A stretch of 64,000 nt of DNA from Candidatus Omnitrophota bacterium (GCA_029261055.1 JAJDCA010000068.1:133275-197274), one strand, 5' to 3'; shown: positions 13,116 through 43,842, counted from the stretch's first letter. The notes: a model not told the origin generated them from the letters alone. Translations and numbers: made by a program.

Positions 13116-14558
13116 ATGCTAAAAATTTCCCGCAGCATTATCCTGGCCTTCACTTTTTCAATCTTATACTGGATTTACGTGGGGTACGTTTCCCAAATTG
13201 CGTTAGCTAATGATGCGATTGCTTACGACAACCTTGGCTCATTAATCTACAATAATGGTTGGGGCGATTTTTTTAGAACCGGCCCTCATCGGGAACCATT
13301 TTATCCTTTTCTGATATCTGTCACCATGAGCTTGGGGAAACTTTTTTCTATTTCCTATCACATTCCCCAAAAAATCATTCAGTTTTCTTTTTTACTTTTA
13401 ACACAAATTCTTTCCTTAATCATCCTTAAAAAATTAAAAATAAATAATTTTTTATGCGCCTGCATCATTTTGTACATTGGATTTTCTCCGGCTTTCGTTA
13501 ATTCATCCCTAAGTCTATTTTCTGAAATCGCTGCCTACCCTTTTATTCTACTTACCGTCATCTTTGCCAGCACAAGTTACAAAAACATCTTAATTACAAA
13601 AAAAGGTCGTTCCACCCAAAAATTATCACTGCTTTTAGCCTTCTTGTTAGGAACAAGCATCTTAATGATCACTTTTGTGAAAGGTATTTTTGAATTATTC
13701 ATCCCTTTTTTATTGATCCCTTTTTGCATTATGCTTATAAAAACATACCGGCTGAAACAAAAAGAAGCATCTAATAATATCCTTGCCTTTATTATCATTG
13801 CAGCTCTAAGCTTTTATTTACCGTTTAATGCATATAAACTAGCCAATAAAAAATATAATGGTAATTTCACATTTACAACACGCGGAAGTGAAGTTCTTTA
13901 TGCGGAAACCAAACGACGCATGGACAATTTTTCCGCAAAAAACTGGTTAACAGCCCTTGTGTACGTTCCTGGGCACAGATACTGTGAACCTCTTTTTGGT
14001 AATGCCGCTTGTGCGTACTGGACGCCTCTTATCGACATCAATAAGCTACTCTACAATCATAAAGATGAAATTTCAGACGCCCCTACCACAAGCAATGCGT
14101 TTAAAAAAATACTCCTAATGAAAACATTCAAAAGAATCTTTAAAAACCCTTTTGCCTATACCTTAATGACGGCTACGGTGGGACTAAAACTATTTTTTTG
14201 GGAATCGTCCAAACTAGGACATGTGGCTTACCCGGACTGGATGGATAAAATTTTCTGGAACCCCGGACTTGAAAATATTCTCAACTTCAGCGTTGCCTTA
14301 CTTTCTTTTCTTGCTTTTCTCTATCTAATAAAATTTATTTGGCAGCATCGCAAAAATATTTTTGCTTTCAAAACACAAAACAACGAAGTCACTTGTTACC
14401 TTTTATTTGTTTTTCTCATTCTTTCTGTATTTATGACAATCTCATCTCTCTTCATTATCCTCACCAGGTACATGCTCCCCATCGCCCCGCTTTATCTCAT
14501 CATCATTGCTTTTACTATCCAACAAATTGTAAATCGCATCAAATCCCGTCACTCCTGA
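13116..14558 (+). CDS. GT-C family glycosyltransferase (PMT_2/ArnT-like, GT39/GT83-type), 480 aa polytopic membrane protein
   Basis: Loop motif NDAIAYDNLG...GPHREPFYPFLIS resembles the DE..Y....PPLYYW first-loop signature of ArnT/PMT enzymes. At least 11 TM segments. Confidence 0.55.
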   Translation: MLKISRSIILAFTFSILYWIYVGYVSQIALANDAIAYDNLGSLIYNNGWGDFFRTGPHREPFYPFLISVTMSLGKLFSISYHIPQKIIQFSFLLLTQILSLIILKKLKINNFLCACIILYIGFSPAFVNSSLSLFSEIAAYPFILLTVIFASTSYKNILITKKGRSTQKLSLLLAFLLGTSILMITFVKGIFELFIPFLLIPFCIMLIKTYRLKQKEASNNILAFIIIAALSFYLPFNAYKLANKKYNGNFTFTTRGSEVLYAETKRRMDNFSAKNWLTALVYVPGHRYCEPLFGNAACAYWTPLIDINKLLYNHKDEISDAPTTSNAFKKILLMKTFKRIFKNPFAYTLMTATVGLKLFFWESSKLGHVAYPDWMDKIFWNPGLENILNFSVALLSFLAFLYLIKFIWQHRKNIFAFKTQNNEVTCYLLFVFLILSVFMTISSLFIILTRYMLPIAPLYLIIIAFTIQQIVNRIKSRHS

Positions 14559-29527: not shown

Positions 29528-30163
29528 TCACACACCATCCAACCTAAAAACAAACGGCATCTTCACAACACTCTGAACAGATACACCAAAACGCTGTGCC
29601 GGCTGAAACCGCCACTTCTTTGCGGCCTTGACGGCACTTTGATCAAGAATATCGTATCCAGAAAATTGAACAATAACAACCTTATCTACAAAACCTGTTT
29701 TCGTAATCGAAATATTTAAAATCACCTTACCTTCATAACCTTGCTTCCGTGCTGCACGAGGATATGTCGGCGGTTTATTGTAATATTCATTTACTTTTGC
29801 TTCAACAAATGCACCACTCTTAGAATTTTGTAATGCATTTATATCTACTTTTTCTTTTTTCTTTTTCACTTCACCCTTAATAACCTCATCATTCTTAGGC
29901 TTCGCAGGCTGATCACCTTTCTTCTTTTCTATTTGAATCTGACCTGTCTTGGAAATTGCTACCTTGGGCGTCTCAATTTTTGAAACTTCGATCTTAGCAG
30001 GTTTAACCTTGGGAGCTTTAACAGAAACAAGCGAAATTTCCAAACTCGATGGGGCGGCAATCACATTAAAATCATGCGGTTTAACCCACTGAGCTAAATT
30101 CACCAAAAGCGCAGCATGAATACCCACGGCCCCCACTAATCCCGCCTTTAACTCATTGGTCAT
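29528..30163 (-). CDS. tonB: TonB energy transducer (C-terminal TonB domain; Lys/Pro/Glu-rich spacer)
   Basis: N-terminal anchor, KPAKIEVSKIETPKV... spacer, C-terminal PPTYPRAARKQGYEGKVIL... TonB-C signature. Confidence 0.8.
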   Translation of the reverse strand: MTNELKAGLVGAVGIHAALLVNLAQWVKPHDFNVIAAPSSLEISLVSVKAPKVKPAKIEVSKIETPKVAISKTGQIQIEKKKGDQPAKPKNDEVIKGEVKKKKEKVDINALQNSKSGAFVEAKVNEYYNKPPTYPRAARKQGYEGKVILNISITKTGFVDKVVIVQFSGYDILDQSAVKAAKKWRFQPAQRFGVSVQSVVKMPFVFRLDGV

Positions 30164-33111: not shown

Positions 33112-33130
33112 ATTCTTTCCTTTCAATAAA

Positions 33131-33345
33131 AAAACCCTTTTTCGTCTTCCGAACCTACAGGAAAGAAAAAGGGCACATACAACACATCATAACTTTTTAC
33201 CTCTGCTCGGAGATTTTATTCATAAACAGGTTGTGTTCTGACTATGCAAGTTATGGAACATAACTTGCTTACAGTGGCGGCACCGTGGAGTTCTCCGCTT
33301 AATGCAAATAGCGAATCCTCACTTTCCAACCTGTTCCCTAAAACT
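33131..33345 (-). ncRNA. cobalamin (B12) riboswitch with intrinsic-terminator expression platform
   Basis: Minus strand reads ...AGGGAACAGGTTGGAAAGTGAGGATTCGC...GGTGCCGCCACTGTAAGC... (B12 box GCCACTG). Then GCCCTTTTTC...GAAAAAGGGTTTTTTT terminator just 5' of the btuB-like RBS. Confidence 0.7.
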
Positions 33346-33428
33346 TTAAAGATCAATAAACCCAACGCGCGCTAATATATCATGATTTTTAAAATAGTCA
33401 AATTTTAAAATGCCCAACAATAAACGCA

Positions 33429-35084
33429 CTATCGCCGAAGGCTTCCCCCATATGGGGTTTTAATTTTAAATTTTTTACTCAGACCTATGATTTCCTGAAT
33501 AAGCGCCTCATTATTTTCATCGGATTCTAAAAGGCTAATCAAGTGGTAAATTTTATTAAAGGCCCAATTACGGGCAATGGATTCGTCTCCGCCCATAGAC
33601 TCTTCAAAGCTACCTTTAATAATAAATTCATTGACCTTATTATCTCCCTCACCCAAAATCTGCCAGGCAAAATCTTGTTCATCGGTGTACTTGCCGTACA
33701 ATGTAAATTCTGTATTACGGAAAAGATCTGGTAATATTTTTGGAAAAATATTGTCGTCATTCAATCCACTTACATGATATTTCAATTTTAACAATAAAGG
33801 ATCTTTGATCTTTTCGTACATGCTGGACAAATTTCTTCCGATAAAATGTGATCGATAGGAATATTCAGACCAACCTCGATTCTTGTAGGCAATAAAATCT
33901 AAAAGATACCGGTTAACACTCAACCCGCCACTAAAAGTAAAAATAGAAACCTGCCCATTATTCAACGCGGAAATATCATTAATAAGTTTGCGCGAATCGG
34001 TTACACCCCGCGTCGGGTGTCCATCACTGAGAAGAATAATGTAACTCGGCGACTTTATTTCTTCATCCGCAATACTCTTGTAAAGAGCATTGTACGTGTC
34101 TGTTTTTTCACCGGACGTAAGATTCTCAACAAACTTTAAAGCTTCCTGCACATTTTCATCGGTCGGCTCGACCGATGAAGATCGAAATTTATCAGTCGTT
34201 TTCTTAAAGGCTAATATGTTAAATGTATCTTGTGGATTCAGACGATTTAAACTGTATTTAATCCCTTTTTTAAATTCATCCAAACGCTCTCGCTGCGTAC
34301 TCAATGAACAATCGACCAAGAAAATAATTTCTTTCGGTATGGTTGCAAGACGCACACCATCGTCACCGACTTTAATACTGATTTTGTAATACTTTTGCCC
34401 ATCCTCAAGATCTTCATACGTAAACAAAACACTATCGAAAAACCTTTTGAGATTCCCAAGGCGTCTTTTTCGTTTAATAGTTCCTTTGCCTTTTGCCGTT
34501 TCATCCCCTTTTGAAACAGATTCGGAAATAGCCGTCTTTAACTGTGGTGTAAACCCCGGCATTTTGTCAAAGAAATCACCCTCTTCATCCCCGGCATCAA
34601 AAACTTCGTCTGAACCAGCCGTAATATCCATATCCGGTTGTTCGGCAATCTTAACAAGCGCTTCTCTCGTTTTTCGCTTGGCTTTTGGCATCAAATCCTT
34701 GTAATTTTTTCGATCCTCTTCAATCAAGTCAATCTCTTTACGTTTAGAAATAACAGCAGGTTCTTTGACCTTTGCCACTGGTTTATGCAGTTCTGTTTTC
34801 TGTTCAACGTCTATCTGCGCATCAATGGAGGCAATGGTCAACCCTGAATTGGAAAGTGGGCTCTGAAATCTGAGCATCTCTACATACGTCTCTTTTTCTT
34901 TAGCTTGAACTTTGCGGGCAGGCAATGTTGTTTTAAGACTTTTAATCCGAAATAATTTCTTAGATTGAACAACCGGCGTGTAAATAGCTTTAATATCCAT
35001 ATGCGTTGAGGATACAAAAAAAAGCCCGTGGAGCAACAAAGAAATACCGATAGAAAAAAATATTGTTTTTTGATTTCGATTCAT
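33429..35084 (-). CDS. membrane-anchored von Willebrand factor A (vWA) domain protein (551 aa; N-terminal TM, Lys/Glu-rich spacer, vWA, C-terminal domain)
   Basis: MIDAS motif IIFLVDCSLST...; later ...ILLSDGHPT...; N-terminal hydrophobic anchor. BatA/BatB-like architecture. Confidence 0.6.
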   Translation of the reverse strand: MNRNQKTIFFSIGISLLLHGLFFVSSTHMDIKAIYTPVVQSKKLFRIKSLKTTLPARKVQAKEKETYVEMLRFQSPLSNSGLTIASIDAQIDVEQKTELHKPVAKVKEPAVISKRKEIDLIEEDRKNYKDLMPKAKRKTREALVKIAEQPDMDITAGSDEVFDAGDEEGDFFDKMPGFTPQLKTAISESVSKGDETAKGKGTIKRKRRLGNLKRFFDSVLFTYEDLEDGQKYYKISIKVGDDGVRLATIPKEIIFLVDCSLSTQRERLDEFKKGIKYSLNRLNPQDTFNILAFKKTTDKFRSSSVEPTDENVQEALKFVENLTSGEKTDTYNALYKSIADEEIKSPSYIILLSDGHPTRGVTDSRKLINDISALNNGQVSIFTFSGGLSVNRYLLDFIAYKNRGWSEYSYRSHFIGRNLSSMYEKIKDPLLLKLKYHVSGLNDDNIFPKILPDLFRNTEFTLYGKYTDEQDFAWQILGEGDNKVNEFIIKGSFEESMGGDESIARNWAFNKIYHLISLLESDENNEALIQEIIGLSKKFKIKTPYGGSLRR

Positions 35085-35189
35085 TTTAATTAAACCTCGC
35101 TATCGCTCAGCGACTCTTAGTCATCAGTATTTTTTACTGATGTCTGAAGACTGATAGCTGATGACTAACATTTAAATTCCTAAACATTC

Positions 35190-37589
35190 TTACTCTTCAC
35201 TTAAACTCTTAACTTTTCCCTTCGCCTGTTCTGCAACATGGCTTTTTTCATACATACTAAGAATTTCGGTAAAAACTTTTAAAGCTTCATCATTCTTTTG
35301 TAATTGTTCAAAAATTTCCCCAGCCCTAAAAAGCGACTCTGGACAATAATACTCATCACCGTACAATACGGCGACCAACATGTAATATTTTGTGGCCTCC
35401 TCAGGATTTCCCTTCATATGCTCGACGTTGGCAATCTCAAATCTGGCCCGCATAGCAATAGTTGTATCCTCAGCATAATCAAGTAAGGCTGCGTCAAATT
35501 CCTGCCGCGCTTTGTCCAGCTCATTCATCTTAATCAAACTTTCCCCTTTACCAATATGTGCCGCTCCGCCTTTGATCCCGACCTCAGAACTAGAAAGAAC
35601 AATATCGTAGTATTCCACAGCGTCTGCATACTGCATCAACCCCTTGTAAGCCTCTGCCCTTAAATAAGCTATTTGCATTATCACATCTTCGCTCTGTTCC
35701 CCCTGGTTCACCTTCCCTAAAATACGCAAGACATCATCAAATTGTTTTTCCCCTAAATACACATCCGTAATCCAAAGATATGTATTGATATCTAAATCTG
35801 CTTTATCAAAATCTGTAATAATCTTGTCAAAGATTTTAATCGCTTCATCATCTTTTTTTTGATTCAAATAAATCAACCCTCTATTCTTAAGAGAAGAATA
35901 ATATCTCTTCGTATCATTTTCTTGAGGCGTAATTTTTTCATAATAGGTTAATGCCTCATCGGGTTGCTCTGCTAACTGTAGATTGTACGCGAGAAGAAAA
36001 TAAACATCTTCAATACGCTTACTATTTGAATGCTCCTTCTCGTACCGTTTTAAAATATCAACCGCCATGCCATGCCTCTTTGCTGCCGAATAAAGACCCC
36101 CCAAATGAAATAACACCTTCTCCGTACGCTTATCTTTCGGGAATGTCAGCAAATACATTTCGCTATGCGCAACCGCTGTTTGAAGATTACCCAGCTCTTT
36201 ATGGATTAAAATTTCATTAAAAAGAGCTTCTTTTTGCTTATCCTCATCCTCACCTTTTTCAAAATATTGATAAAACAAATCGCCAGCTTCTTTTACTTTG
36301 CCTAAAGAATTTTGGGCATGCGCCATTCCATAAATAGCATCCTGCGCATATTTTGACTCCGGAAATTCTGTAGCTAATTTTTGATATGCTACAAAAGCAG
36401 AATCAAAGGCTTTCATCCCATAATGGGCTTCGCCTTCAAGAAAAATAAGCTGTGCTTTATCCACGGTAGCATCCAGACTATTCGATTTTATGAGCGTAAG
36501 GGCTTCTTCAAATTGCGCTGCACGCACTTTAACCTCAGCCTTTTTGAGAAGAATCTTTTGTTGGTCTTCAGCCGGCAACGAAGGCATGGCGGATATTTTT
36601 TCCAGAAGCGCCAACGCCTCATCAGAACGTTTAAGTTCGGCATAAGCACTCGCCACAGTAAAACGAAGACTAAAAAACTTTTGATCCTCCGATACAATAC
36701 CTTGATACCCCTGGTAACTTTCAATCAAGGCCTCATATTTAGCCAAATTAAATTGCGCTAAAATAAGATTAGTGAAAGCATCCTTAGCCATAGCAAGATC
36801 AGCATACTTCTCTAAGAATTCCTGAAACGTCTTCACCGCATAGGTGTAGTTCTTTGTTAAAAACTGTGCCTCACCTTTTTTGTACAAAACCAAACTTTTT
36901 AAGTCAACCGTCTCAGCAACTTCATAGGCCCTGTCATAATAGTCTATCGCCTTGAAATTTTTTCCTTCATGTGCAAACATATCTCCCAGCTCAAGCAAGG
37001 CATGGATGGTCCGCTTACTGGTCTTTAACACACTTTCCGTTTTTTCAAAATACTCCATCGCCTTGGCAATTTCCCCCTGAGCCTTGTATGTCTTACCTTT
37101 GTAAAAATACAATATTTGGATAAAATCTTTATCGAGACCATCGATAGTAACAGCCTCAAAGGAAGATAAAGCTTGCGAATATTGACCCGTAAAAAAATAA
37201 CACTGCCCCAGGCGTAACATTGTTAAAATCTTTTTAGAAGATTCAGGAAACAATATTTTGTATTTCATGTAAGCCTTAATGGCCTCAGCGTAGGTCTTAG
37301 AAAAAAATAAACTTTCTCCAATCGCAAAATAGGCCTCATGCAAATCCGGACTATCTGAGAAAAGCTTAATAAATTTCTCATACTCCGCAATCGCCATCGG
37401 ATAAAGTTCACGTTGAAAAAGTCCATGTGCAAAGTCAAGCTGCTCAATATCCTTAGCCACTTCTTTAACCTCGCCGGCACTAACATTTTCATTTGCAAAA
37501 ATCGGAGATACTCCAAAAGAAACCATACCCACAACAAATAGCCCCGTCGCCAGTATCATCAAATATTGCTGTCTTATTTTCTCTTTCAT
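35190..37589 (-). CDS. large TPR-repeat protein (799 aa) with N-terminal signal/anchor
   Basis: About 15 recognisable TPR-like 34-residue repeats (AxxYxxxG/A..A...F pattern) throughout. Confidence 0.65.
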   Translation of the reverse strand: MKEKIRQQYLMILATGLFVVGMVSFGVSPIFANENVSAGEVKEVAKDIEQLDFAHGLFQRELYPMAIAEYEKFIKLFSDSPDLHEAYFAIGESLFFSKTYAEAIKAYMKYKILFPESSKKILTMLRLGQCYFFTGQYSQALSSFEAVTIDGLDKDFIQILYFYKGKTYKAQGEIAKAMEYFEKTESVLKTSKRTIHALLELGDMFAHEGKNFKAIDYYDRAYEVAETVDLKSLVLYKKGEAQFLTKNYTYAVKTFQEFLEKYADLAMAKDAFTNLILAQFNLAKYEALIESYQGYQGIVSEDQKFFSLRFTVASAYAELKRSDEALALLEKISAMPSLPAEDQQKILLKKAEVKVRAAQFEEALTLIKSNSLDATVDKAQLIFLEGEAHYGMKAFDSAFVAYQKLATEFPESKYAQDAIYGMAHAQNSLGKVKEAGDLFYQYFEKGEDEDKQKEALFNEILIHKELGNLQTAVAHSEMYLLTFPKDKRTEKVLFHLGGLYSAAKRHGMAVDILKRYEKEHSNSKRIEDVYFLLAYNLQLAEQPDEALTYYEKITPQENDTKRYYSSLKNRGLIYLNQKKDDEAIKIFDKIITDFDKADLDINTYLWITDVYLGEKQFDDVLRILGKVNQGEQSEDVIMQIAYLRAEAYKGLMQYADAVEYYDIVLSSSEVGIKGGAAHIGKGESLIKMNELDKARQEFDAALLDYAEDTTIAMRARFEIANVEHMKGNPEEATKYYMLVAVLYGDEYYCPESLFRAGEIFEQLQKNDEALKVFTEILSMYEKSHVAEQAKGKVKSLSEE

Positions 37590-38005
37590 TCATCCTTCCT
37601 TGTCGCAAACGAAATATTCCAAATGTTCGCTTTCGCGCAAGCGTCTAAAACGTTCACTACGGATTCATGGTATGTTTTTTCATCCGCGCGAATAATCACC
37701 GGCTGACTCGGAAATAAAGATGCAATTTTCTGCAACATTGCTTCTAATTCCACAATGGCTAACTTTTTTTGATTAACGATCACAGCACCATCTTTGGCCA
37801 CATTAATAATAATTTCGCCAGGACTTCTAACCGCTTCTTTAGCTTCTTGCGCCTTGGGTACGCTGATACTGATTTCTGTTTCCTGTTGATTAAAGATCGA
37901 AAGCGTCATAAAAAAAACTAATGTCAAAAACACAATATCGATCAACGGTGCCATTTGAATTAAAGGTCTTTGTTTTTGATATTCGGATATGGTAAATCGC
38001 GCCAT
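37586..38005 (-). CDS. ExbD/TolR-family protein (second copy)
   Basis: 139 aa, N-terminal TM (PLIDIVFLTLVFFM), ExbD-like domain. 4-nt overlap with the downstream TPR gene. Confidence 0.75.
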   Translation of the reverse strand: MARFTISEYQKQRPLIQMAPLIDIVFLTLVFFMTLSIFNQQETEISISVPKAQEAKEAVRSPGEIIINVAKDGAVIVNQKKLAIVELEAMLQKIASLFPSQPVIIRADEKTYHESVVNVLDACAKANIWNISFATRKDE

Positions 38006-38763
38006 TATTTTTCTCCTAATTCTTCGACAAGCTTAACAATATCACCGCTGTAAGTTTCGACAGCATCAGAAATTTCCTGAACCCTTCCTCTAAAATATGT
38101 GTAAAACAACATGACTGGAATCGCAACAATTAAACCAGCGGCGGTTGTGACCATAGCTTTAGAAACACCCCCAGCCAACAAAATAGGTTTAACTACCGCG
38201 GACTGAAAAGCAATCACATTAAACGCCTGAATCATGCCCAAAACCGTTCCTAAAAGACCGATCAATGGGGCTACAGCGGCGATGTCAGCCAAATAACTAA
38301 TATTTTGCCAAAGACGTGCCACTTCTTTTTGCGCACAATTTTCCATGGCCTCACGCGCGAAAACCTTACCTCTTCCCTTCTTTTCTATTCCAGCAATAAC
38401 AATTCGGCTAATCAAATTATGTTTACTGGAATAACACTGCCCCTTTACGCTACGCTCTTCGTTATCTTCTAATTTCTGAATAATTTCTTCCGTAAATTTT
38501 TGTGGAAGGATTTTACTCATTTTCAATGTCATAAAATTATAAACAATAAAAGATAAAGACACAAAAGAAAGAACCCCCAAAACAATCATGATGAAACCGC
38601 CGGTTTTAATTGTCTCCCACAGAGTCATCCCTTCTTTAGTCTGCTCTAAAGATTCAATGTACGGCTGCACATCTCCCGTCGCGCTAAAGACCTCTTGCCC
38701 TCCGACAAAAAATAGCAATCCCCCTAAAACTAAAACCATTAAATTTTTAAAACTCATCCTCAA
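38005..38763 (-). CDS. ExbB/TolQ/MotA-family proton channel (second copy, with N-terminal periplasmic extension)
   Basis: Signal/anchor, then three TM helices with ...APLIGLLGTVLGMI... and ...AMVTTAAGLIVAIP... conserved stretches. Confidence 0.75.
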   Translation of the reverse strand: MRMSFKNLMVLVLGGLLFFVGGQEVFSATGDVQPYIESLEQTKEGMTLWETIKTGGFIMIVLGVLSFVSLSFIVYNFMTLKMSKILPQKFTEEIIQKLEDNEERSVKGQCYSSKHNLISRIVIAGIEKKGRGKVFAREAMENCAQKEVARLWQNISYLADIAAVAPLIGLLGTVLGMIQAFNVIAFQSAVVKPILLAGGVSKAMVTTAAGLIVAIPVMLFYTYFRGRVQEISDAVETYSGDIVKLVEELGEK

Positions 38764-38875
38764 GCTCCTTTCAAGTTCCGCTATTTTAAACGGAAAATTT
38801 TAGTCATCAGACTTCAGACACCAGTCGTCAGTATTTTGTTTTCACTGATGCCTGATGGCTGACGACTTAAAGTTC

Positions 38876-41800
38876 CTAATAAATATTCAACCTAATTTCT
38901 TCTTTCACAGATGGTGTAGGGCCATTAATCTTATGAACATGCGTGGCTCTTTCCAAAAATATTACCGATTGTTTCTCATGCCCCAGCGCCTTCAGACTTA
39001 ATCCCAAATGATAATACGCTTCCGCATGATGTGAATTCTTATTAAGACATTCTTGAAAATAAAAAACAGCTTTCTTAAATTGTTTAAGCTTGAATGCCGT
39101 AATACCTAAATAATAATAGAAAAAATCTTCTTCACTAAACCCTGACGATGTAGCATACTCCGCAATACGCACGACTTCCGCATAATTTTTAAGTTGAAGT
39201 TGGCTTAAAATAAGCATCTTGTAACAGTCTCGATAACCTTCTTTTAGTTGATTTTTTAATTGTTCCCTATCCGTTATTCTTTGCGCCGATAAAATAGGCC
39301 GATACACCTTAGACTCCTGAACAAACTGCGAAGTTTTTCCTACATCGCTCGTCACAGCTTTACCAAGAGAAACGGCAGCTTCTTGATATTGATCATTTTT
39401 AAAATACACAACGCCTAAATTGTACCAGAACCAAAAGAAATCAGGATTTAAATAAATAGCCTTATTGTAATAATCTATCGCTTTATCATAATTCCCTAAA
39501 TGGTAATGACAAAAACCGAGAAGGCCGTAAGCTGCAGACCGTGAAGGCATGTATTGATTAATTTTTTCATAATATTTAACCTGCTTTTTTAACTCTTCCT
39601 TATCAAAGTTTTTTTGATTCTTAAAAACATAAGCTAAGTAATCAGGATTAACATAGAATTCATTTAATTCTTTTACTTTATTCTGCGCCTTTACCTTTTT
39701 TTTGTCAAATACAGCATACGCTATCAAAAACATCACCACATACAATATCACCACACGCTTGCCAATACAGGCAACCGCACGAATAACCTTATTATTTCTC
39801 CATTTCGATGATCCTATTTTTCCCGCCACACCCTCTGATTCCAATAAAACGTCTTCACTCTCTTCTTCCACTAAAGCTGCAGACTTTTTCCGCATAACAT
39901 AACTCTTCCCCGCAAGAAAAAATAGAGCTAAACAAACGCCAAGAGACACAAAGATATTAACATAATTCAAAGTATGCCGCCAAATCGATCCAAAACGCAA
40001 ATGCACGACATTTTTACCAGCGGGAACCCATACCCCTTTAAACGCAATATTGGCCCGCCAGATAGAAGTTTTTTCCCCGTTAACAAAAGCATTCCACCCT
40101 CTATGGTAAACATCATTGTAAACAAGAAATTTTCGCGTATCAAAATCAGTTTCAAATTTAATAAAATTTACACCGTAACTCACAAGAGCTTCGTCTGACA
40201 AAAACTGTGGATGGGGATCAACAGGGGCCACATCTTTATTCAGATAGTGTTCCTGATGGTCGTCAAAAACAAAAGCTACATTTTCATATTGTTCAAAAGC
40301 CCGTTCAATCCGTTTATGGTCTAATTGCTTCTCATTGACAACTTCGACACGATCATAAACCCGTAACTTTGCTCTTTTAAGCGCCTCGATAGATTTAGAA
40401 TTAAAATCTCTGTGTAACGAATCCCACCATCTCATCCCAAAATAAATAGGAAAAGTTTTTTTAATCTTAGGCTCTAAAGGGTCGATCTTAAGATTTTTTA
40501 TTTTTTCCTCTACGGAGAATAGATACTCTTTACTTTCAAAAGGATTTTCTAAATATGGCATTAAATAAGGACCATATCGAAAATTTTGTCGGTCAATTTT
40601 AGTCGCATTGTCCTGGTAGTAATGAAAAACTTGCAAAGGTTGCATCACAATAAGAATAAATAAAGGAAAAATAAAGAAAAATACGCCTTTTTTACCACTC
40701 CAGACGTAATACATAAAATACAAACAACTTAAAAAAAGTACGCCATATGTCGTGACAATAGCATTTTTCTGAGCGTAAACCATAAAGGCAACTAAGACGT
40801 GCAGAAAAATAAGCACAGCTAAACAACCATATTTGGCCTTTTTAGTCTGAGGACGATAGTGGATAAGTAAACGAAATTGTTCGACCAAAAATAATATGGT
40901 CACAGGCAACATCAATAACCACAAAAAATTGGTTAAATTACGAAAATATCTAAAAAAGAAAACATGTTTATGTAAAAAAGCAAAAAAAGGTGCTTCAGTA
41001 GAACTTATTAAAAAAGTTCCAAACCCTAAAAGAGCAAAGAAAATAAGCCTTCGATTTACAGAAAGACCCAGACCAAATACAAAAATCAGCAAAGCAAATA
41101 ACGGGACATACAACATTTCAAGGTTTGCTTTATGTAAATCAGGAAAAATTTTCTCAAATTGAAGCTTCGTAATAATCCCCGGTTCTGTGACCCTACGCGT
41201 TGACACCTCCAAAACATTCATATCCAACAGCCCAACCTTGCCAATAAAATCAGCCGCCTGTCGACCCGCGAGGACAAAATCGCCCTTTCCTCCATCCAAA
41301 TAAAAAAGAACCCCTGGAAGAAGAGACAAAATAAAAGCCACCAAACAACAACAAACAAAAATTTTATTACTCTTCAAAAACTGAAAACACCGCAGAATAA
41401 ATTCCTTTAAATACCGAAAATACACAAGCGCAAAAACAATCAAAAACGACAAAAAAATCGTCAAAAAGTAAAAAGGAATGTATGTCGAGATGATGAGCAT
41501 TGAACAAAACGTCAACCCGAGAAAATTCTGTTTCTCCTGTTTTTCAAAAAATGCCATCAGAAAATAAAAAAACCACACAAAGGGAACGAACAAAAGAATA
41601 ATGTAGTTAAAAAAAAGTAAGGTTCCTAAACTAGAAAATAATAAAAGTAAAAAAGCTGTTATGGCTGCATAGGTATCACGAAAAATACGCCTTGCTAAAA
41701 GGTAAAAACCTATCATTCCGATAAAAAAATAAATCGCTAAAAACCAAAGGTATCCATAAGTGTACGGGATATCAGCGCTATTGTTCGCTGCCCTATCCAC

Positions 41801-42103
41801 AAAACAGTCAAAGAATGCCTCTAAAGGAATGATTAAAAAAAAGAAAGGATTCGGGGCTCCGATCCTACGCATAAAAAATTCGGCAGGGACGCCTCCTTGC
41901 CGAGTAGATTCCCACATAGGATAAATACCTCGACGGATATTTTCTATGTAAAAATCAATATGTTCGTAATAAGAAATGGCATCTGCAACAAGAGGAGATT
42001 TATTGAAGAAATAATTGCGGAACGAAAATGCCCACAAAACAAAAGAAAAAACGATCAAAACCCAAATGGCTTTGGAATGATTGGAATGGAAAGACAACTT
42101 CAT
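38876..42103 (-). CDS. 1075-aa polytopic membrane protein (~700 aa, at least 14 TM) fused to C-terminal TPR module; GT-C/TMTC-like glycosyltransferase candidate
   Basis: Hydrophobic N-terminal two thirds. C-terminal TPR block paralogous to 3054..4808 and 12092..13099. 4-nt ATGA overlap with the upstream PKD gene. Confidence 0.5.
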   Translation of the reverse strand: MKLSFHSNHSKAIWVLIVFSFVLWAFSFRNYFFNKSPLVADAISYYEHIDFYIENIRRGIYPMWESTRQGGVPAEFFMRRIGAPNPFFFLIIPLEAFFDCFVDRAANNSADIPYTYGYLWFLAIYFFIGMIGFYLLARRIFRDTYAAITAFLLLLFSSLGTLLFFNYIILLFVPFVWFFYFLMAFFEKQEKQNFLGLTFCSMLIISTYIPFYFLTIFLSFLIVFALVYFRYLKEFILRCFQFLKSNKIFVCCCLVAFILSLLPGVLFYLDGGKGDFVLAGRQAADFIGKVGLLDMNVLEVSTRRVTEPGIITKLQFEKIFPDLHKANLEMLYVPLFALLIFVFGLGLSVNRRLIFFALLGFGTFLISSTEAPFFAFLHKHVFFFRYFRNLTNFLWLLMLPVTILFLVEQFRLLIHYRPQTKKAKYGCLAVLIFLHVLVAFMVYAQKNAIVTTYGVLFLSCLYFMYYVWSGKKGVFFFIFPLFILIVMQPLQVFHYYQDNATKIDRQNFRYGPYLMPYLENPFESKEYLFSVEEKIKNLKIDPLEPKIKKTFPIYFGMRWWDSLHRDFNSKSIEALKRAKLRVYDRVEVVNEKQLDHKRIERAFEQYENVAFVFDDHQEHYLNKDVAPVDPHPQFLSDEALVSYGVNFIKFETDFDTRKFLVYNDVYHRGWNAFVNGEKTSIWRANIAFKGVWVPAGKNVVHLRFGSIWRHTLNYVNIFVSLGVCLALFFLAGKSYVMRKKSAALVEEESEDVLLESEGVAGKIGSSKWRNNKVIRAVACIGKRVVILYVVMFLIAYAVFDKKKVKAQNKVKELNEFYVNPDYLAYVFKNQKNFDKEELKKQVKYYEKINQYMPSRSAAYGLLGFCHYHLGNYDKAIDYYNKAIYLNPDFFWFWYNLGVVYFKNDQYQEAAVSLGKAVTSDVGKTSQFVQESKVYRPILSAQRITDREQLKNQLKEGYRDCYKMLILSQLQLKNYAEVVRIAEYATSSGFSEEDFFYYYLGITAFKLKQFKKAVFYFQECLNKNSHHAEAYYHLGLSLKALGHEKQSVIFLERATHVHKINGPTPSVKEEIRLNIY

Positions 42104-43842
42104 CGAATGGTAAATACCGGTACTGGTGTTGTGTTCACCTCAGCCACAAAACTTGATGAAGACTGGCTACAAGAGGTGCCTGAATTATCATCTACGGTTA
42201 ATGTAATATTGTACGTCCCACTTTTCACATACGTATGCCCAACGGCAACACCGTTGGTTTTGGCACCATCGCCAAAATCCCAAGAATATGTCAAGTGGTC
42301 TCCATCGGGGTCACTTGATGCAGAAGCGTTAAACCGGGTCGCAACTCCGACACAACAGGCTAGATTTGGACCGATGTCTGCCACAGGGGGTGTATTAACT
42401 TTAATCGTAGCCGCAGCAGTAGCCGTAGAACAAGCTGAACCTCTTCCATCATCCACAATCACGCTAACCCGGTAATTACCGCCCTGCTTGTAATCATGGG
42501 CCACTTTCGCACCCCCATGTAAAATGGTGCCGTCGCCAAAGCTCCAATAATACTCTAAAGCATCGCCATCCGGATCAGAGGCTGAGGTTGCATCAAAGAA
42601 AACCTGATTCCCCAAACACACCGACTCAACTGTTTTAATGGAAACCGAAGGGGCTGCATTTACCGTTACCGTCCGGGTATCTCTTGATGGCGGACACATG
42701 GTATTCAATTCATTAGCTATTGAAACGCTGGCCTGATATTGACCGGGTTTCTTGTATCGGTAGCTCACTTTTAATCCTTCTGCTGACTTTCCATCTCCAA
42801 AAAACCACTTCGCTGACAGGGTTCCTTTTTTGTAAGCATACGAGCTCGTCCCATCAAAAAGAACATCTTCACCGCTACAAACCGTCACATCATCACCGGC
42901 ATGGGCTTCCGGAGCTTTATTTAATTTAACAGTCACAAAATCTACGCCTGTGCCACATTCCAAATTTGTATTATCTTTTACAATAAGCTTTGCATCGTAA
43001 TTGCCTAACTGAGAATATTTATGTGTTACCTTAACCCCTGTGTCTTTATGCCCATCTCCAAAATCCCACAAATAAATTAATGTGTCATTATTCGCATCAC
43101 GCGTCCCGGAAGCATCAAAGGATACCGTCATATCTTTTTCAGCACTAACACATTTAAAAACTTGTTCTTCACCCGCTTCGGCAACCGGAGGCTCATTCAC
43201 ATTAATAACCTTCTCTACCGTGTGACGGCTGCAGTCGGTATTTGCTTTATCATCTACAGTTAAAGTCACCTTGTATTTACCGCCCCGCACAAAAGATTTT
43301 GTTACACGTTTTTTTCCTTTTAATAGAGTGCCATCTCCTAAATCCCATTCATAAGCTAATTTTCTACGCCCATCATCGTAACTATCCCCGGCATCTAAAA
43401 CAATAGATTGATTAACACAAGCAAATTCATCCGCAGAAAAAGCCGCAAAAGGAGGAATATTCGCCCTTACTGTTTGAGTACTTTTAGCTACACTACATTC
43501 CAACCCGGAGTTATCTGCAATACTTAACACCACTTTGTAATCTCCTGATTTTTCGTAGACATGTGTAGCAACGGGTTGTGTACTTGTGTTGCCGTCTCCA
43601 AAATTCCAGAAAAAAGAAATCTCCTCTTTATCCGGGTCATACGAACTGCTGGCATCAAACGTAAATTCATTACATTTTAAAGAAGTGATGGGTTGACTGG
43701 AGACCCCTTGATTCCGCTTGCTTACTTGCGCAAAGGCTGCAGTGTGAAGAGTTAAAAATGTACTGCTTAAAAATAAAATTACTAAAAAATTATTAAATAA
43801 ATTTAAATTGCGTTTCATAAAAACCTCTCTGCTATTTTTCAT
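42100..43842 (-). CDS. secreted protein with six tandem PKD domains
   Basis: Signal peptide. Six repeats of W(x)FGDG...H.Y...G.Y.V.L.V.D (e.g. FWNFGDGNTSTQPVATHVYEKSGDYKVVLSIADNSG). Confidence 0.75.
   Translation of the reverse strand: MKNSREVFMKRNLNLFNNFLVILFLSSTFLTLHTAAFAQVSKRNQGVSSQPITSLKCNEFTFDASSSYDPDKEEISFFWNFGDGNTSTQPVATHVYEKSGDYKVVLSIADNSGLECSVAKSTQTVRANIPPFAAFSADEFACVNQSIVLDAGDSYDDGRRKLAYEWDLGDGTLLKGKKRVTKSFVRGGKYKVTLTVDDKANTDCSRHTVEKVINVNEPPVAEAGEEQVFKCVSAEKDMTVSFDASGTRDANNDTLIYLWDFGDGHKDTGVKVTHKYSQLGNYDAKLIVKDNTNLECGTGVDFVTVKLNKAPEAHAGDDVTVCSGEDVLFDGTSSYAYKKGTLSAKWFFGDGKSAEGLKVSYRYKKPGQYQASVSIANELNTMCPPSRDTRTVTVNAAPSVSIKTVESVCLGNQVFFDATSASDPDGDALEYYWSFGDGTILHGGAKVAHDYKQGGNYRVSVIVDDGRGSACSTATAAATIKVNTPPVADIGPNLACCVGVATRFNASASSDPDGDHLTYSWDFGDGAKTNGVAVGHTYVKSGTYNITLTVDDNSGTSCSQSSSSFVAEVNTTPVPVFTIR

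Follow-up and report, generated by a model that had tools for sequence, protein, structure and literature searches.

The window analyzed here, a 64,000-nucleotide stretch of DNA from a Candidatus Omnitrophota bacterium, contains on its minus strand a cassette of four co-directional open reading frames (ORFs; positions 33429-38763) that encode a MotA/TolQ/ExbB-family stator subunit (ExbB2), an ExbD/TolR-family stator subunit (ExbD2), a large protein with tetratricopeptide repeats (TPRs), and a protein with a vWA (von Willebrand factor A) domain (table 1). The stop codon of exbB2 and the start codon of exbD2 have base 38005 in common, and a 4-nt overlap (37586-37589) joins exbD2 to the gene of the TPR protein. 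ExbB2 has a length of 252 aa if translated from a TTG codon and of 250 aa from the ATG two codons further in, which is the start chosen by the gene caller. No match to the TonB_C model of Pfam was found in any of the four proteins, and the canonical TonB (TonB_C e value 6e-23) is encoded in the adjacent downstream btuB-exbB-exbD-tonB-btuF cluster. The ORFs, their families and overlaps, and the lack of a TonB_C gene among them had been described in an earlier note on this DNA, with which both the coordinates and the Pfam matches agree.

We surveyed the neighborhood of the cassette using one genome per species, which resulted in a set of 80 loci whose gene content was determined by tblastn with the proteins of the window as queries. 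Loci in which the sequence upstream of the vWA gene extends for 4.3 kb or more were treated as informative, and all 55 Omnitrophota loci of this kind have the order ExbB-ExbD-TPR-vWA on one strand; 53 of them were obtained by automated counting, and the remaining two (L053 and L076) show all genes in order on the raw tblastn listing. Because the four genes recur in identical order and on the same strand in 55 loci, the arrangement is far from chance. A TPR ortholog lies directly upstream of the vWA gene in 78 of the 80 loci, and each of the 80 has one ExbD-like gene and never a second one, as do the loci from Candidatus Hydrogenedens and from an unclassified metagenome-assembled genome (MAG) introduced below. 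Clustering of all ORFs in the 80 loci revealed that the only conserved families are the four of the cassette; the next families on the plus strand occur in 19 loci or fewer, and the ten that are annotated include a glycosyltransferase, HemE, HemH, GST, and an ABC ATPase. BtuB is found in one of the 80 related loci and TonB in none. Given that no flanking gene is conserved, the position beside the canonical Ton set, which the earlier note had pointed out, is incidental, and a functional tie to the neighboring btuB-exbB-exbD-tonB cluster was rejected on these counts and on the separate promoter-like site and riboswitch-like sequence in the btuB leader.

More than 120 full-length homologs of the vWA protein were identified (36-52% identity), and those that are named belong to Omnitrophota or Omnitrophica with the exception of one hydrothermal-vent metagenome entry. 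A profile search of 1.84 billion representative proteins resulted in approximately 100 full-length vWA clusters together with a sister group of proteins of 575-615 aa, some members of which are named Candidatus Hydrogenedentota. Outside the listed Omnitrophota set, the cassette is present in the same order in one Candidatus Hydrogenedens locus and in one locus of an unclassified MAG, in which ExbB has a length of 244 and 281 aa, ExbD of 161 and 143 aa, the TPR protein of 797 and 848 aa, and the vWA protein of 607 and 618 aa, respectively. Its occurrence in both Omnitrophota and Hydrogenedens loci means that the module spans at least two phyla. The co-occurrence in related genomes on which the earlier note had made its proposal depend is thus observed in every informative locus, and the four genes are one discrete, tightly conserved module.

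For the vWA protein, we constructed an alignment of 29 diverse homologs (A1), from which the residue counts below are taken, and used a wider census of 118 close homologs. The earlier note had ascribed to this protein a TonB-like N-terminal layout with a single membrane anchor and a long Lys/Glu/Pro-rich spacer. The anchor bears out this description, as its helix carries a Ser-x3-His motif in which S15 is present in 27 and H19 in all 28 of the aligned sequences, placing both at 90% conservation or above. The pattern [SA]xxxH was found in 108 of the 118 close homologs, and the other ten, which start without an N-terminal hydrophobic segment, are apparently N-terminally truncated gene calls. No Asp is present in the helix (TIFFSIGISLLLHGLFFVSS). 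The spacer is rich in Lys, Glu, and Asp but not in Pro (K 14.8%, E 8.8%, P 4.9%), and in the 29 homologs its length varies only between 175 and 197 aa with a median of 184 aa. In an AlphaFold2 model built with A1, the helix spans residues 3-28, almost all of residues 31-208 have a predicted local distance difference test (pLDDT) value below 50, and residues 210-551 have a pLDDT of about 90. Approximately 15 residues past the helix, a motif of the form [KR]-x-hydrophobic-F-x-[VI]-K is conserved (F45 in 22 of 29 sequences, V, I, L, or M at position 47 in 29 of 29, and K48 in 22 of 29), and similar segments ('LFHIKTV' and 'LFKVKV') occur in Hydrogenedentota and unnamed sister proteins. From its position and conservation we infer that residues 43-49 are a candidate "motor box," that is, a segment bound by ExbD. 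A second linker motif, 'FxDKMPGFTP', could be where the TPR protein or some other partner binds. This motif becomes 'FLDKS...' in one subclade, and a short strand is predicted at residues 178-180 in the AlphaFold2 model.

The head of the vWA protein has the metal ion-dependent adhesion site (MIDAS) mentioned in the earlier note, and the site is complete: its first motif reads DCSLS (aa 258-262), the residues D258-x-S260-x-S262, T328, and D354 are invariant in the alignment, and none of the 118 close homologs lacks DxSxS. The region that follows the vWA domain is also well conserved and ends with an invariant Pro-Tyr that is mostly preceded by Thr. It had been described as an unknown domain; however, the vWA domain and this region form a unit with homology to the heavy chains of inter-alpha-trypsin inhibitor (ITIHs). 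The top PDB match of the modeled head by Foldseek is ITIH1 (6fpy; e value 3.1e-25 over 342 aligned columns), with other vWA proteins matching too, a profile search of PDB matched ITIH4 over residues 244-546 (e value 2.5e-35), and the VIT-vWA "sortase target" model TIGR03788 matched residues 229-545 with an e value of 2e-32, which is below its cutoff. Therefore, the C-terminal domain corresponds to the post-vWA region of an ITIH-type module. The earlier note had allowed that the protein might be a divergent TonB with a cryptic TonB_C fold, and this candidate was rejected by Pfam, NCBIfam, AlphaFold2 with Foldseek, and the PDB profile search.

Proteins of this general design have been proposed before. 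In 2025, "vWA force transducers" encoded next to tolQ, tolR, and TPR genes were put forward from genome analysis (PMC12204202, Mol Biol Evol), so that the idea in the earlier note was already in the literature and its statement that no such system had been described is outdated. The published proteins have a helix with an SHLS motif and a vWA C-terminal domain, and the disordered linker between them contains a motor box, a concept that originates in that work; in the AlphaFold3 models reported there, the helix of the transducer occupies the site of TonB on the motor, and deletion phenotypes have not been reported so far (PMC12204202). The phylum list given there does not include Omnitrophota or Hydrogenedentota, and Tichowtungia is reported to be without discernible TonB and TolA (PMC12204202). 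In the Omnitrophota literature that we searched, the cassette is not mentioned. We compared the reference Tichowtungia transducer sequence from the supplement of PMC12204202 with the cassette family, and the motor proteins of both loci with each other.

The best NCBIfam matches of the motor proteins are tolQ for ExbB2 (e value 1.1e-27) and tolR for ExbD2 (e value 7.3e-15), both far below the equivalog cutoffs, and the top PDB matches of ExbB2 are TolQ chains. ExbB2 begins with a signal-peptide-like segment followed by a short periplasmic extension ahead of the first transmembrane helix (TM1). The threonine of 'GLLGT' in TM2 and the second threonine of 'TT' in TM3 are kept in at least 90% of the sequences. 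In an alignment with E. coli TolQ (8odt), Lys202 in TM3 of ExbB2 sits under the Glu of 'GIAEAL'. This column contains Lys in 60 of 61 Omnitrophota orthologs, Thr in the Hydrogenedens cassette, and Gln in the cassette of the unclassified MAG, whereas the Glu is kept in the Ton ExbB encoded in the window itself ('GISEAL') and in the ExbB of the Tichowtungia vWA locus. In the mutagenesis literature, the TM3 glutamate is described as functionally important in ExbB and TolQ. Given its replacement by Lys, Thr, or Gln, the motor may deviate from canonical ExbB, and the ion pathway of the stator may differ from the canonical one.

ExbD2 has the conserved transmembrane Asp that the earlier note had proposed to look for: across 64 family members, conservation of Asp23 is 90% or higher, and the residue lines up with the Asp of 'TPFIDV' in E. 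coli ExbD; the helix segment QMAPLIDIVFLTLVFFM of the window recurs unchanged in the Hydrogenedens cassette. Although the Ton ExbB and ExbD of the window are encoded only 7 kb from the cassette, ExbB2 is closer to the ExbB of the Tichowtungia vWA locus (34% identity over the full length, 112 bits) than to the local Ton ExbB (30%, 78 bits), and ExbD2 likewise scores higher against the Tichowtungia ExbD (81 bits) than against the local Ton ExbD (56 bits). These similarities point to a motor lineage dedicated to vWA partners. Assignment of the cassette to Zorya antiphage defense was rejected, as PADLOC gave a marginal ZorA match for ExbB2 (e value 1.2e-4, 19 bits) and none for ExbD2 or the vWA protein.

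The TPR protein matches the tol_pal_ybgF model TIGR02795 in six stretches with an e value of 1.1e-48 and a summed score above the cutoff, and it also has a BamD-subfamily match in NCBIfam; its match to the BatC model (e value 0.0013) is below the 175-bit cutoff of that model. It has a signal-peptide-like N-terminus and no lipobox; its orthologs have a length of approximately 790 aa and signal-peptide-like N-termini, and a lipobox-like motif was found in only one of 67. Therefore, the TPR protein is most likely soluble in the periplasm, as judged from these N-termini. The mature N-terminus contains a conserved 'DFAxGLxxRxxY' motif. A conserved acidic C-terminus that might act as a MIDAS ligand was not found in the TPR orthologs.

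Table 1. Features of the cassette and its surroundings (positions in the 64-kb window).
Feature	Position	Strand	Evidence
exbB2, MotA/TolQ/ExbB-family stator subunit	38005..38763	-	PF01618, E 4.7e-32 (Pfam)
exbD2, ExbD/TolR-family stator subunit, 139 aa	37586..38005	-	PF02472, E 3.1e-27 (Pfam)
TPR protein, 799 aa, most likely periplasmic	35190..37589	-	many Pfam TPR families; YbgF/CpoB-type repeats along the whole length
vWA protein, 551 aa, putative force transducer	33429..35084	-	VWA_3 E 1.3e-12 and VWA E 8e-9, aa 252-406
vWA protein: transmembrane helix, aa 3-28, with TonB-like Ser15-x3-His19 face (S15, H19, F22, S26)	35001..35078	-	translation RNQKTIFFSIGISLLLHGLFFVSS
vWA protein: post-helix motif 'KLFRIKS', aa 43-49, candidate ExbD-binding motor box	34938..34958	-	column counts in the alignment of 29 homologs
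vWA protein: Lys/Glu/Asp-rich linker, aa 29-210, predicted disordered	34455..35000	-	pLDDT <50
vWA protein: second linker motif 'FxDKMPGFTP', aa 171-180	34545-34574	-	F171 in 28/29, K174 in 25/29 (A1)
vWA protein: head, aa 211-551, vWA with complete MIDAS, then beta-sandwich and helical region	33432..34454	-	ITIH homology
vWA protein: MIDAS motif DCSLS	34299-34313		invariant in the alignment
ExbB2: codon of Lys202 (TM3)	about 38158-38160		alignment with E. coli TolQ
Palindromic 'CATCAG'-repeat hairpin, 112-nt gap upstream of exbB2	38795..38880	-	RNA fold -35 kcal/mol, z = -7.2
Second palindromic 'CATCAG' element, 105-nt gap between TPR and vWA genes	35090..35175	-	RNA fold -24 kcal/mol, z = -3.35
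btuB leader, probably a divergent cobalamin riboswitch	33125-33401	-	see following row
Adenosylcobalamin (AdoCbl) riboswitch match within the leader	33188-33353	-	full length, sub-threshold: 23 bits vs gathering score 50, E 0.054
Promoter-like site	33401-33374
Canonical TonB	29528-30163		TonB_C
1075-aa protein, long hydrophobic and apparently polytopic N-terminal part, C-terminal TPRs	38876-42103	-
580-aa protein, six PKD domains	42100-43842	-	4-nt overlap with the gene of the 1075-aa protein
480-aa ORF among cobalamin-related and housekeeping genes	13116-14558	+	no Pfam match at E <= 1e-5

On the downstream side, the 300-nt gap between the vWA stop codon and btuB contains the promoter-like site, the riboswitch match with a B12-box-like GCCACTG motif, and a hairpin with a T-run just ahead of btuB. 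At gathering thresholds no Rfam model matched in the window; the match in the btuB leader, which lies below that threshold, is listed in table 1 with its probable assignment. Judging from the promoter-like site, the riboswitch match, and the hairpin, the B12-uptake operon appears to have transcription and regulation of its own.

The two palindromic 'CATCAG' heptad elements in the gaps of the cassette have the core AAAATACTGAYGACT in common, and a 26-nt degenerate pattern derived from them has three matches in the window against zero expected, all inside the two gaps. The element may be REP-like (repetitive extragenic palindromic) or act as a regulatory or terminator element, and the copy at 38795-38880 may be the terminator of the upstream gene or a regulatory hairpin at the 5' edge of the cassette. 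Because most other loci have no more than about 0-20 nt between the TPR and vWA genes, the element does not belong to the conserved system and is probably local to the source genome. The direct neighbors of the cassette in the window are BtuB on one side and, on the other, the 1075-aa polytopic membrane/TPR protein and the PKD protein. Relatives of the 1075-aa protein are found near the cassette in five of 80 loci, at varying positions and sometimes downstream, and the PKD protein in none; with these counts and no fixed position, both proteins were rejected as parts of the system. The rest of the window encodes cobalamin-biosynthesis and housekeeping genes, and no Tol-Pal genes are present within its 64 kb.

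We consider it reasonably probable (approximately 0.6) that the cassette encodes a dedicated motor driven by the proton motive force (PMF) together with its own non-TonB force transducer. ExbB2 and ExbD2 would form an inner-membrane stator of the ExbB5-ExbD2 type, as expected from family membership, with Asp23 and the threonines retained. The vWA protein would lie in the inner membrane with its N-terminus inside and, given the conserved SxxxH, would dock outside the ExbB pentamer via the Ser15/His19 face in the manner of TonB and TolA, while the hydrophobic motif at residues 43-49 would be a candidate for capture by the periplasmic domain of ExbD. The disordered linker of approximately 184 residues, conserved in length, could then serve as a tether able to span the periplasm, and the ITIH/integrin-like head could bind a carboxylate of a partner via the MIDAS metal, so that turning of the motor would pull that partner. 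The secreted 800-aa TPR protein would be an obligatory periplasmic scaffold or adaptor comparable to CpoB of Tol-Pal and TtpD of Vibrio TonB2. The process served may be adhesion, envelope tethering, or surface remodeling. The suggestion in the earlier note that the vWA protein is the energized output of the motor is accordingly the best-supported reading in its outline, and the same mechanism was proposed independently for an analogous family (PMC12204202). The analysis shows the gene content, the conservation of the cassette, the domain folds, and the motifs, whereas the contacts between the proteins and the use of the force in this scheme are what motifs and synteny suggest.

Several observations weigh against this motor-transducer scheme. 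The match to the TonB SHLS motif is limited to its Ser-His half, the Leu/Ser half not being present at the TonB spacing, and Ser26 occupies the position equivalent to Leu27 of TonB. The His of the helix is often Tyr ('xxYAGL') in the sister clade that includes Hydrogenedentota and has the same four-gene cassette (for example P0304, P0322, P0334, P0341, P0343, and P0362, among others, with lengths of 575-615 aa; loci L083 and L085). The AlphaFold2 model has no strand at the putative motor box. The head is approximately 38 kDa and thus far bigger than the C-terminal domains of TonB and TolA, and it may be unable to cross the peptidoglycan to the outer membrane. With the TM3 Glu replaced, the motor may not work like canonical ExbB. 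Finally, ORF clustering of the 80 loci revealed no conserved partner gene, for an outer-membrane protein or otherwise, downstream or nearby.

The same genes can be read differently. Pairs of vWA and TPR proteins are typical of Bat-type operons, and the vWA and TPR proteins might form a Bat-like (BatA-E type) scaffold, periplasmic or in the membrane, that is uncoupled from the motor, with ExbB2 and ExbD2 energizing something else, such as an unlinked TonB-like protein or the TPR protein, and being co-transcribed for regulation. That pairing and the weak BatC match of the TPR protein would fit such a scaffold; however, a passive anchor has no need of a single N-terminal helix with a conserved SxxxH, the gene order is strict in every informative locus, the reading frames overlap, and no family beyond the four of the cassette exceeds 19 of the 80 loci, with neither MoxR nor DUF58 among the ten that are annotated. 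We therefore regard a Bat-like scaffold as unlikely. A divergent Tol-Pal-type system for envelope tethering or cell division, with a role in outer-membrane stabilization or constriction, would involve the same mechanics as a motor with its own transducer, namely a protein of TolA topology whose C-terminal domain has been swapped for a vWA domain and a giant CpoB-like TPR protein. The best NCBIfam matches (tolQ, tolR, and tol_pal_ybgF), the TolQ chains at the top of the PDB matches of ExbB2, and the TolA/TonB topology of the vWA protein would agree with this assignment. The tolQ and tolR scores are far under the equivalog cutoffs, though, and tolQ and tolR are the top models for the window's canonical Ton ExbB and ExbD as well, so that these matches are not discriminating; moreover, neither TolB nor a Pal/OmpA-like family is conserved in the 80 loci or in the Hydrogenedens loci, and the head is an ITIH-like MIDAS domain rather than TolA domain III. 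A Tol-Pal-type role is, in our view, quite unlikely.

That a spare Ton motor merely lies next to unrelated envelope genes, with no joint function, might be thought of because a complete canonical Ton/B12-uptake cluster follows immediately downstream. Synteny effectively refutes such ordinary juxtaposition, to which we give hardly any credence: the cassette is intact in 55 of 55 loci and in Hydrogenedens, BtuB (1/80) and TonB (0/80) are unlinked to it, and the btuB operon has its own promoter-like site and riboswitch-like leader. A more far-reaching version of the transducer proposal, which we hold as a tentative and rather doubtful possibility, is that Ton and Tol are joined by a third class of envelope machine, widespread and powered by protons, which the cassette represents and in which a TonB-like tether pulls an integrin-like MIDAS head so that metal-dependent binding is loaded from inside. 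In this version, the replacement of the Glu would mark an altered chemistry of the ion pathway, and the role could be attachment of these nanobacteria, which often depend on a host, to that host or to a surface, or else remodeling of an unusual envelope.

Diderm bacteria have two long-established systems, Ton and Tol, in which a TonB/TolA-type tether carries energy from the inner membrane across the periplasm. Transducers with a vWA head are a third output, put forward as late as 2025 and from genome analysis only. The finding in the window is real and its mechanistic reading reasonable, but the concept is not unprecedented; the cassette is a compact form of this poorly understood third class, with several specific and testable features. 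The cassette is the cleanest example so far, comprising four strictly conserved genes in at least two phyla. Its intact MIDAS suggests an identifiable ligand, and it combines a motor lineage of its own with a normal Ton system in the same genome, a coexistence which means that it is not simply a TonB replacement. With these properties the cassette is well suited to structural studies and to reconstitution in a heterologous host, and the Glu-to-Lys change in ExbB poses a concrete question to those who study the stator mechanism. If confirmed, the transducer proposal would mean that an ExbB/ExbD motor is able to drive integrin-like, metal-dependent binding and would provide a handle on the envelope biology of the Omnitrophota, which are still largely uncultured.

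Comparison with known systems places the cassette among, and apart from, several envelope machines. It has in common with the canonical Ton system a stator pair of the same Pfam families and a partner composed of one N-terminal helix with SxxxH, a long nonglobular spacer, and a globular C-terminal head. It differs in that TonB_C is absent and the head has approximately 340 aa and a MIDAS instead of being a TonB domain of about 90 aa that binds by strand addition, in its obligatory 800-aa TPR gene, in the replaced TM3 Glu of ExbB, and in that no TonB-dependent receptor is linked to it (BtuB in 1/80 loci). Tol-Pal with CpoB/YbgF resembles it in having a TolQ/TolR-like motor, a partner of TolA-like topology with a charged, non-proline-rich spacer, and a periplasmic TPR protein with YbgF-type repeats, whereas the TPR protein of the cassette is approximately three times as long as CpoB and its vWA head is not TolA domain III. 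The Bat (BatA-E) operon was rejected as an assignment, since the 80 loci have only the four conserved families and the ten annotated plus-strand families include no MoxR or DUF58.

In the Agl-Glt gliding machinery of Myxococcus, a PMF motor of the TolQR type also works with TonB-like inner-membrane proteins and TPR proteins, and the MIDAS-bearing vWA adhesin CglB is the force-bearing output (PMC9946355, PMC11761067). There, each of these functions has its own protein within a complex of 17 or more, CglB being a lipoprotein of the outer membrane, whereas the cassette has four genes and fuses the vWA head to a TonB-like anchor; the likeness is at the domain level. The Vibrio TonB2 operon encodes the TPR protein TtpD2 together with ExbB and ExbD of a Ton-type motor, and TtpD2 is reported to be essential for TonB2 function (PMC6957404). 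Unlike the cassette, that system has a TonB with a normal C-terminal domain, a TtpD2 of 425 aa, and the additional proteins TtpB and TtpC, and it has no vWA protein. ITIH1, ITIH4, and the bacterial VIT-vWA proteins are homologous in sequence and fold to approximately residues 244-546 of the head, including the MIDAS and the post-vWA region. ITIH-type proteins are secreted, however, whereas in the cassette protein a TonB-like helix and linker tie the head to the inner membrane; these occupy the position of the VIT domain, for which no Pfam match was found in the vWA protein. With no VIT match, the head is homologous to ITIH and the protein is not a member of that family in architecture.

The closest parallel is the Tichowtungia type of vWA force transducer. 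Both transducers have a single N-terminal helix with Ser-x3-His (S31/H35 in Tichowtungia and S15/H19 here), a disordered linker with a conserved motif after the helix, and a head of vWA fold whose best PDB matches are ITIH vWA domains; both gene clusters contain one MotA/ExbB gene, ExbD gene(s), and a large TPR gene (800-940 aa), and both ExbBs have an N-terminal extension that starts in a signal-peptide-like hydrophobic stretch. The differences are equally clear. In the Tichowtungia family the MIDAS DxSxS is not conserved in the alignment (the reference reads 'LDANK') and it is invariant here, the model of the Tichowtungia transducer has helical insertions and no beta-sandwich C-terminal region, the TM3 Glu of its ExbB is kept and is Lys in the cassette, and its locus is ordered TPR-(262 aa)-ExbB-ExbD-ExbD-vWA-vWA rather than ExbB-ExbD-TPR-vWA with single copies. 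Furthermore, Tichowtungia is reported without TonB and TolA, whereas the cassette genome has a canonical TonB next door. The Tichowtungia aerotolerans locus (CP047593.1; L081, 809-3154 and 6057-6845, both on the plus strand) also encodes a 781-aa paralog of the transducers (P0220 family, 31% identity), a second large TPR gene, and, between exbB and the first TPR gene, a 262-aa protein without a Pfam match; TPR and vWA-like genes lie upstream of the ordered set. With these additional genes, that system is larger than the text of PMC12204202 suggests.

In an hhalign comparison, the match to a single Tichowtungia sequence has a probability of 17%, and profile-profile comparison with the Tichowtungia family gives 87% (e value 3.9e-6) over only 72 columns of the vWA core. 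The authors of PMC12204202 delimit their family by sequence homology to the Tichowtungia reference family, and the cassette vWA protein lies outside that boundary; the homologs listed for the Tichowtungia protein come, where a name is given, from Tichowtungia, Kiritimatiellales, Pontiella, or Verrucomicrobia, and precomputed Pfam matches are absent from all of them. The cassette also falls outside the TPH-vWA family of the same study (Idiomarina type), as ExbD2 with its Asp23 is present and the vWA helix is without Asp. Because the profile match to Tichowtungia is confined to the vWA core and the families differ, we assign the cassette to the same kind of system with a distinct transducer family; to judge from the sequence comparisons, the motor is probably related. 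Compared with the Tichowtungia locus, the cassette has a simpler makeup and stricter conservation, and a canonical Ton system is present beside it.

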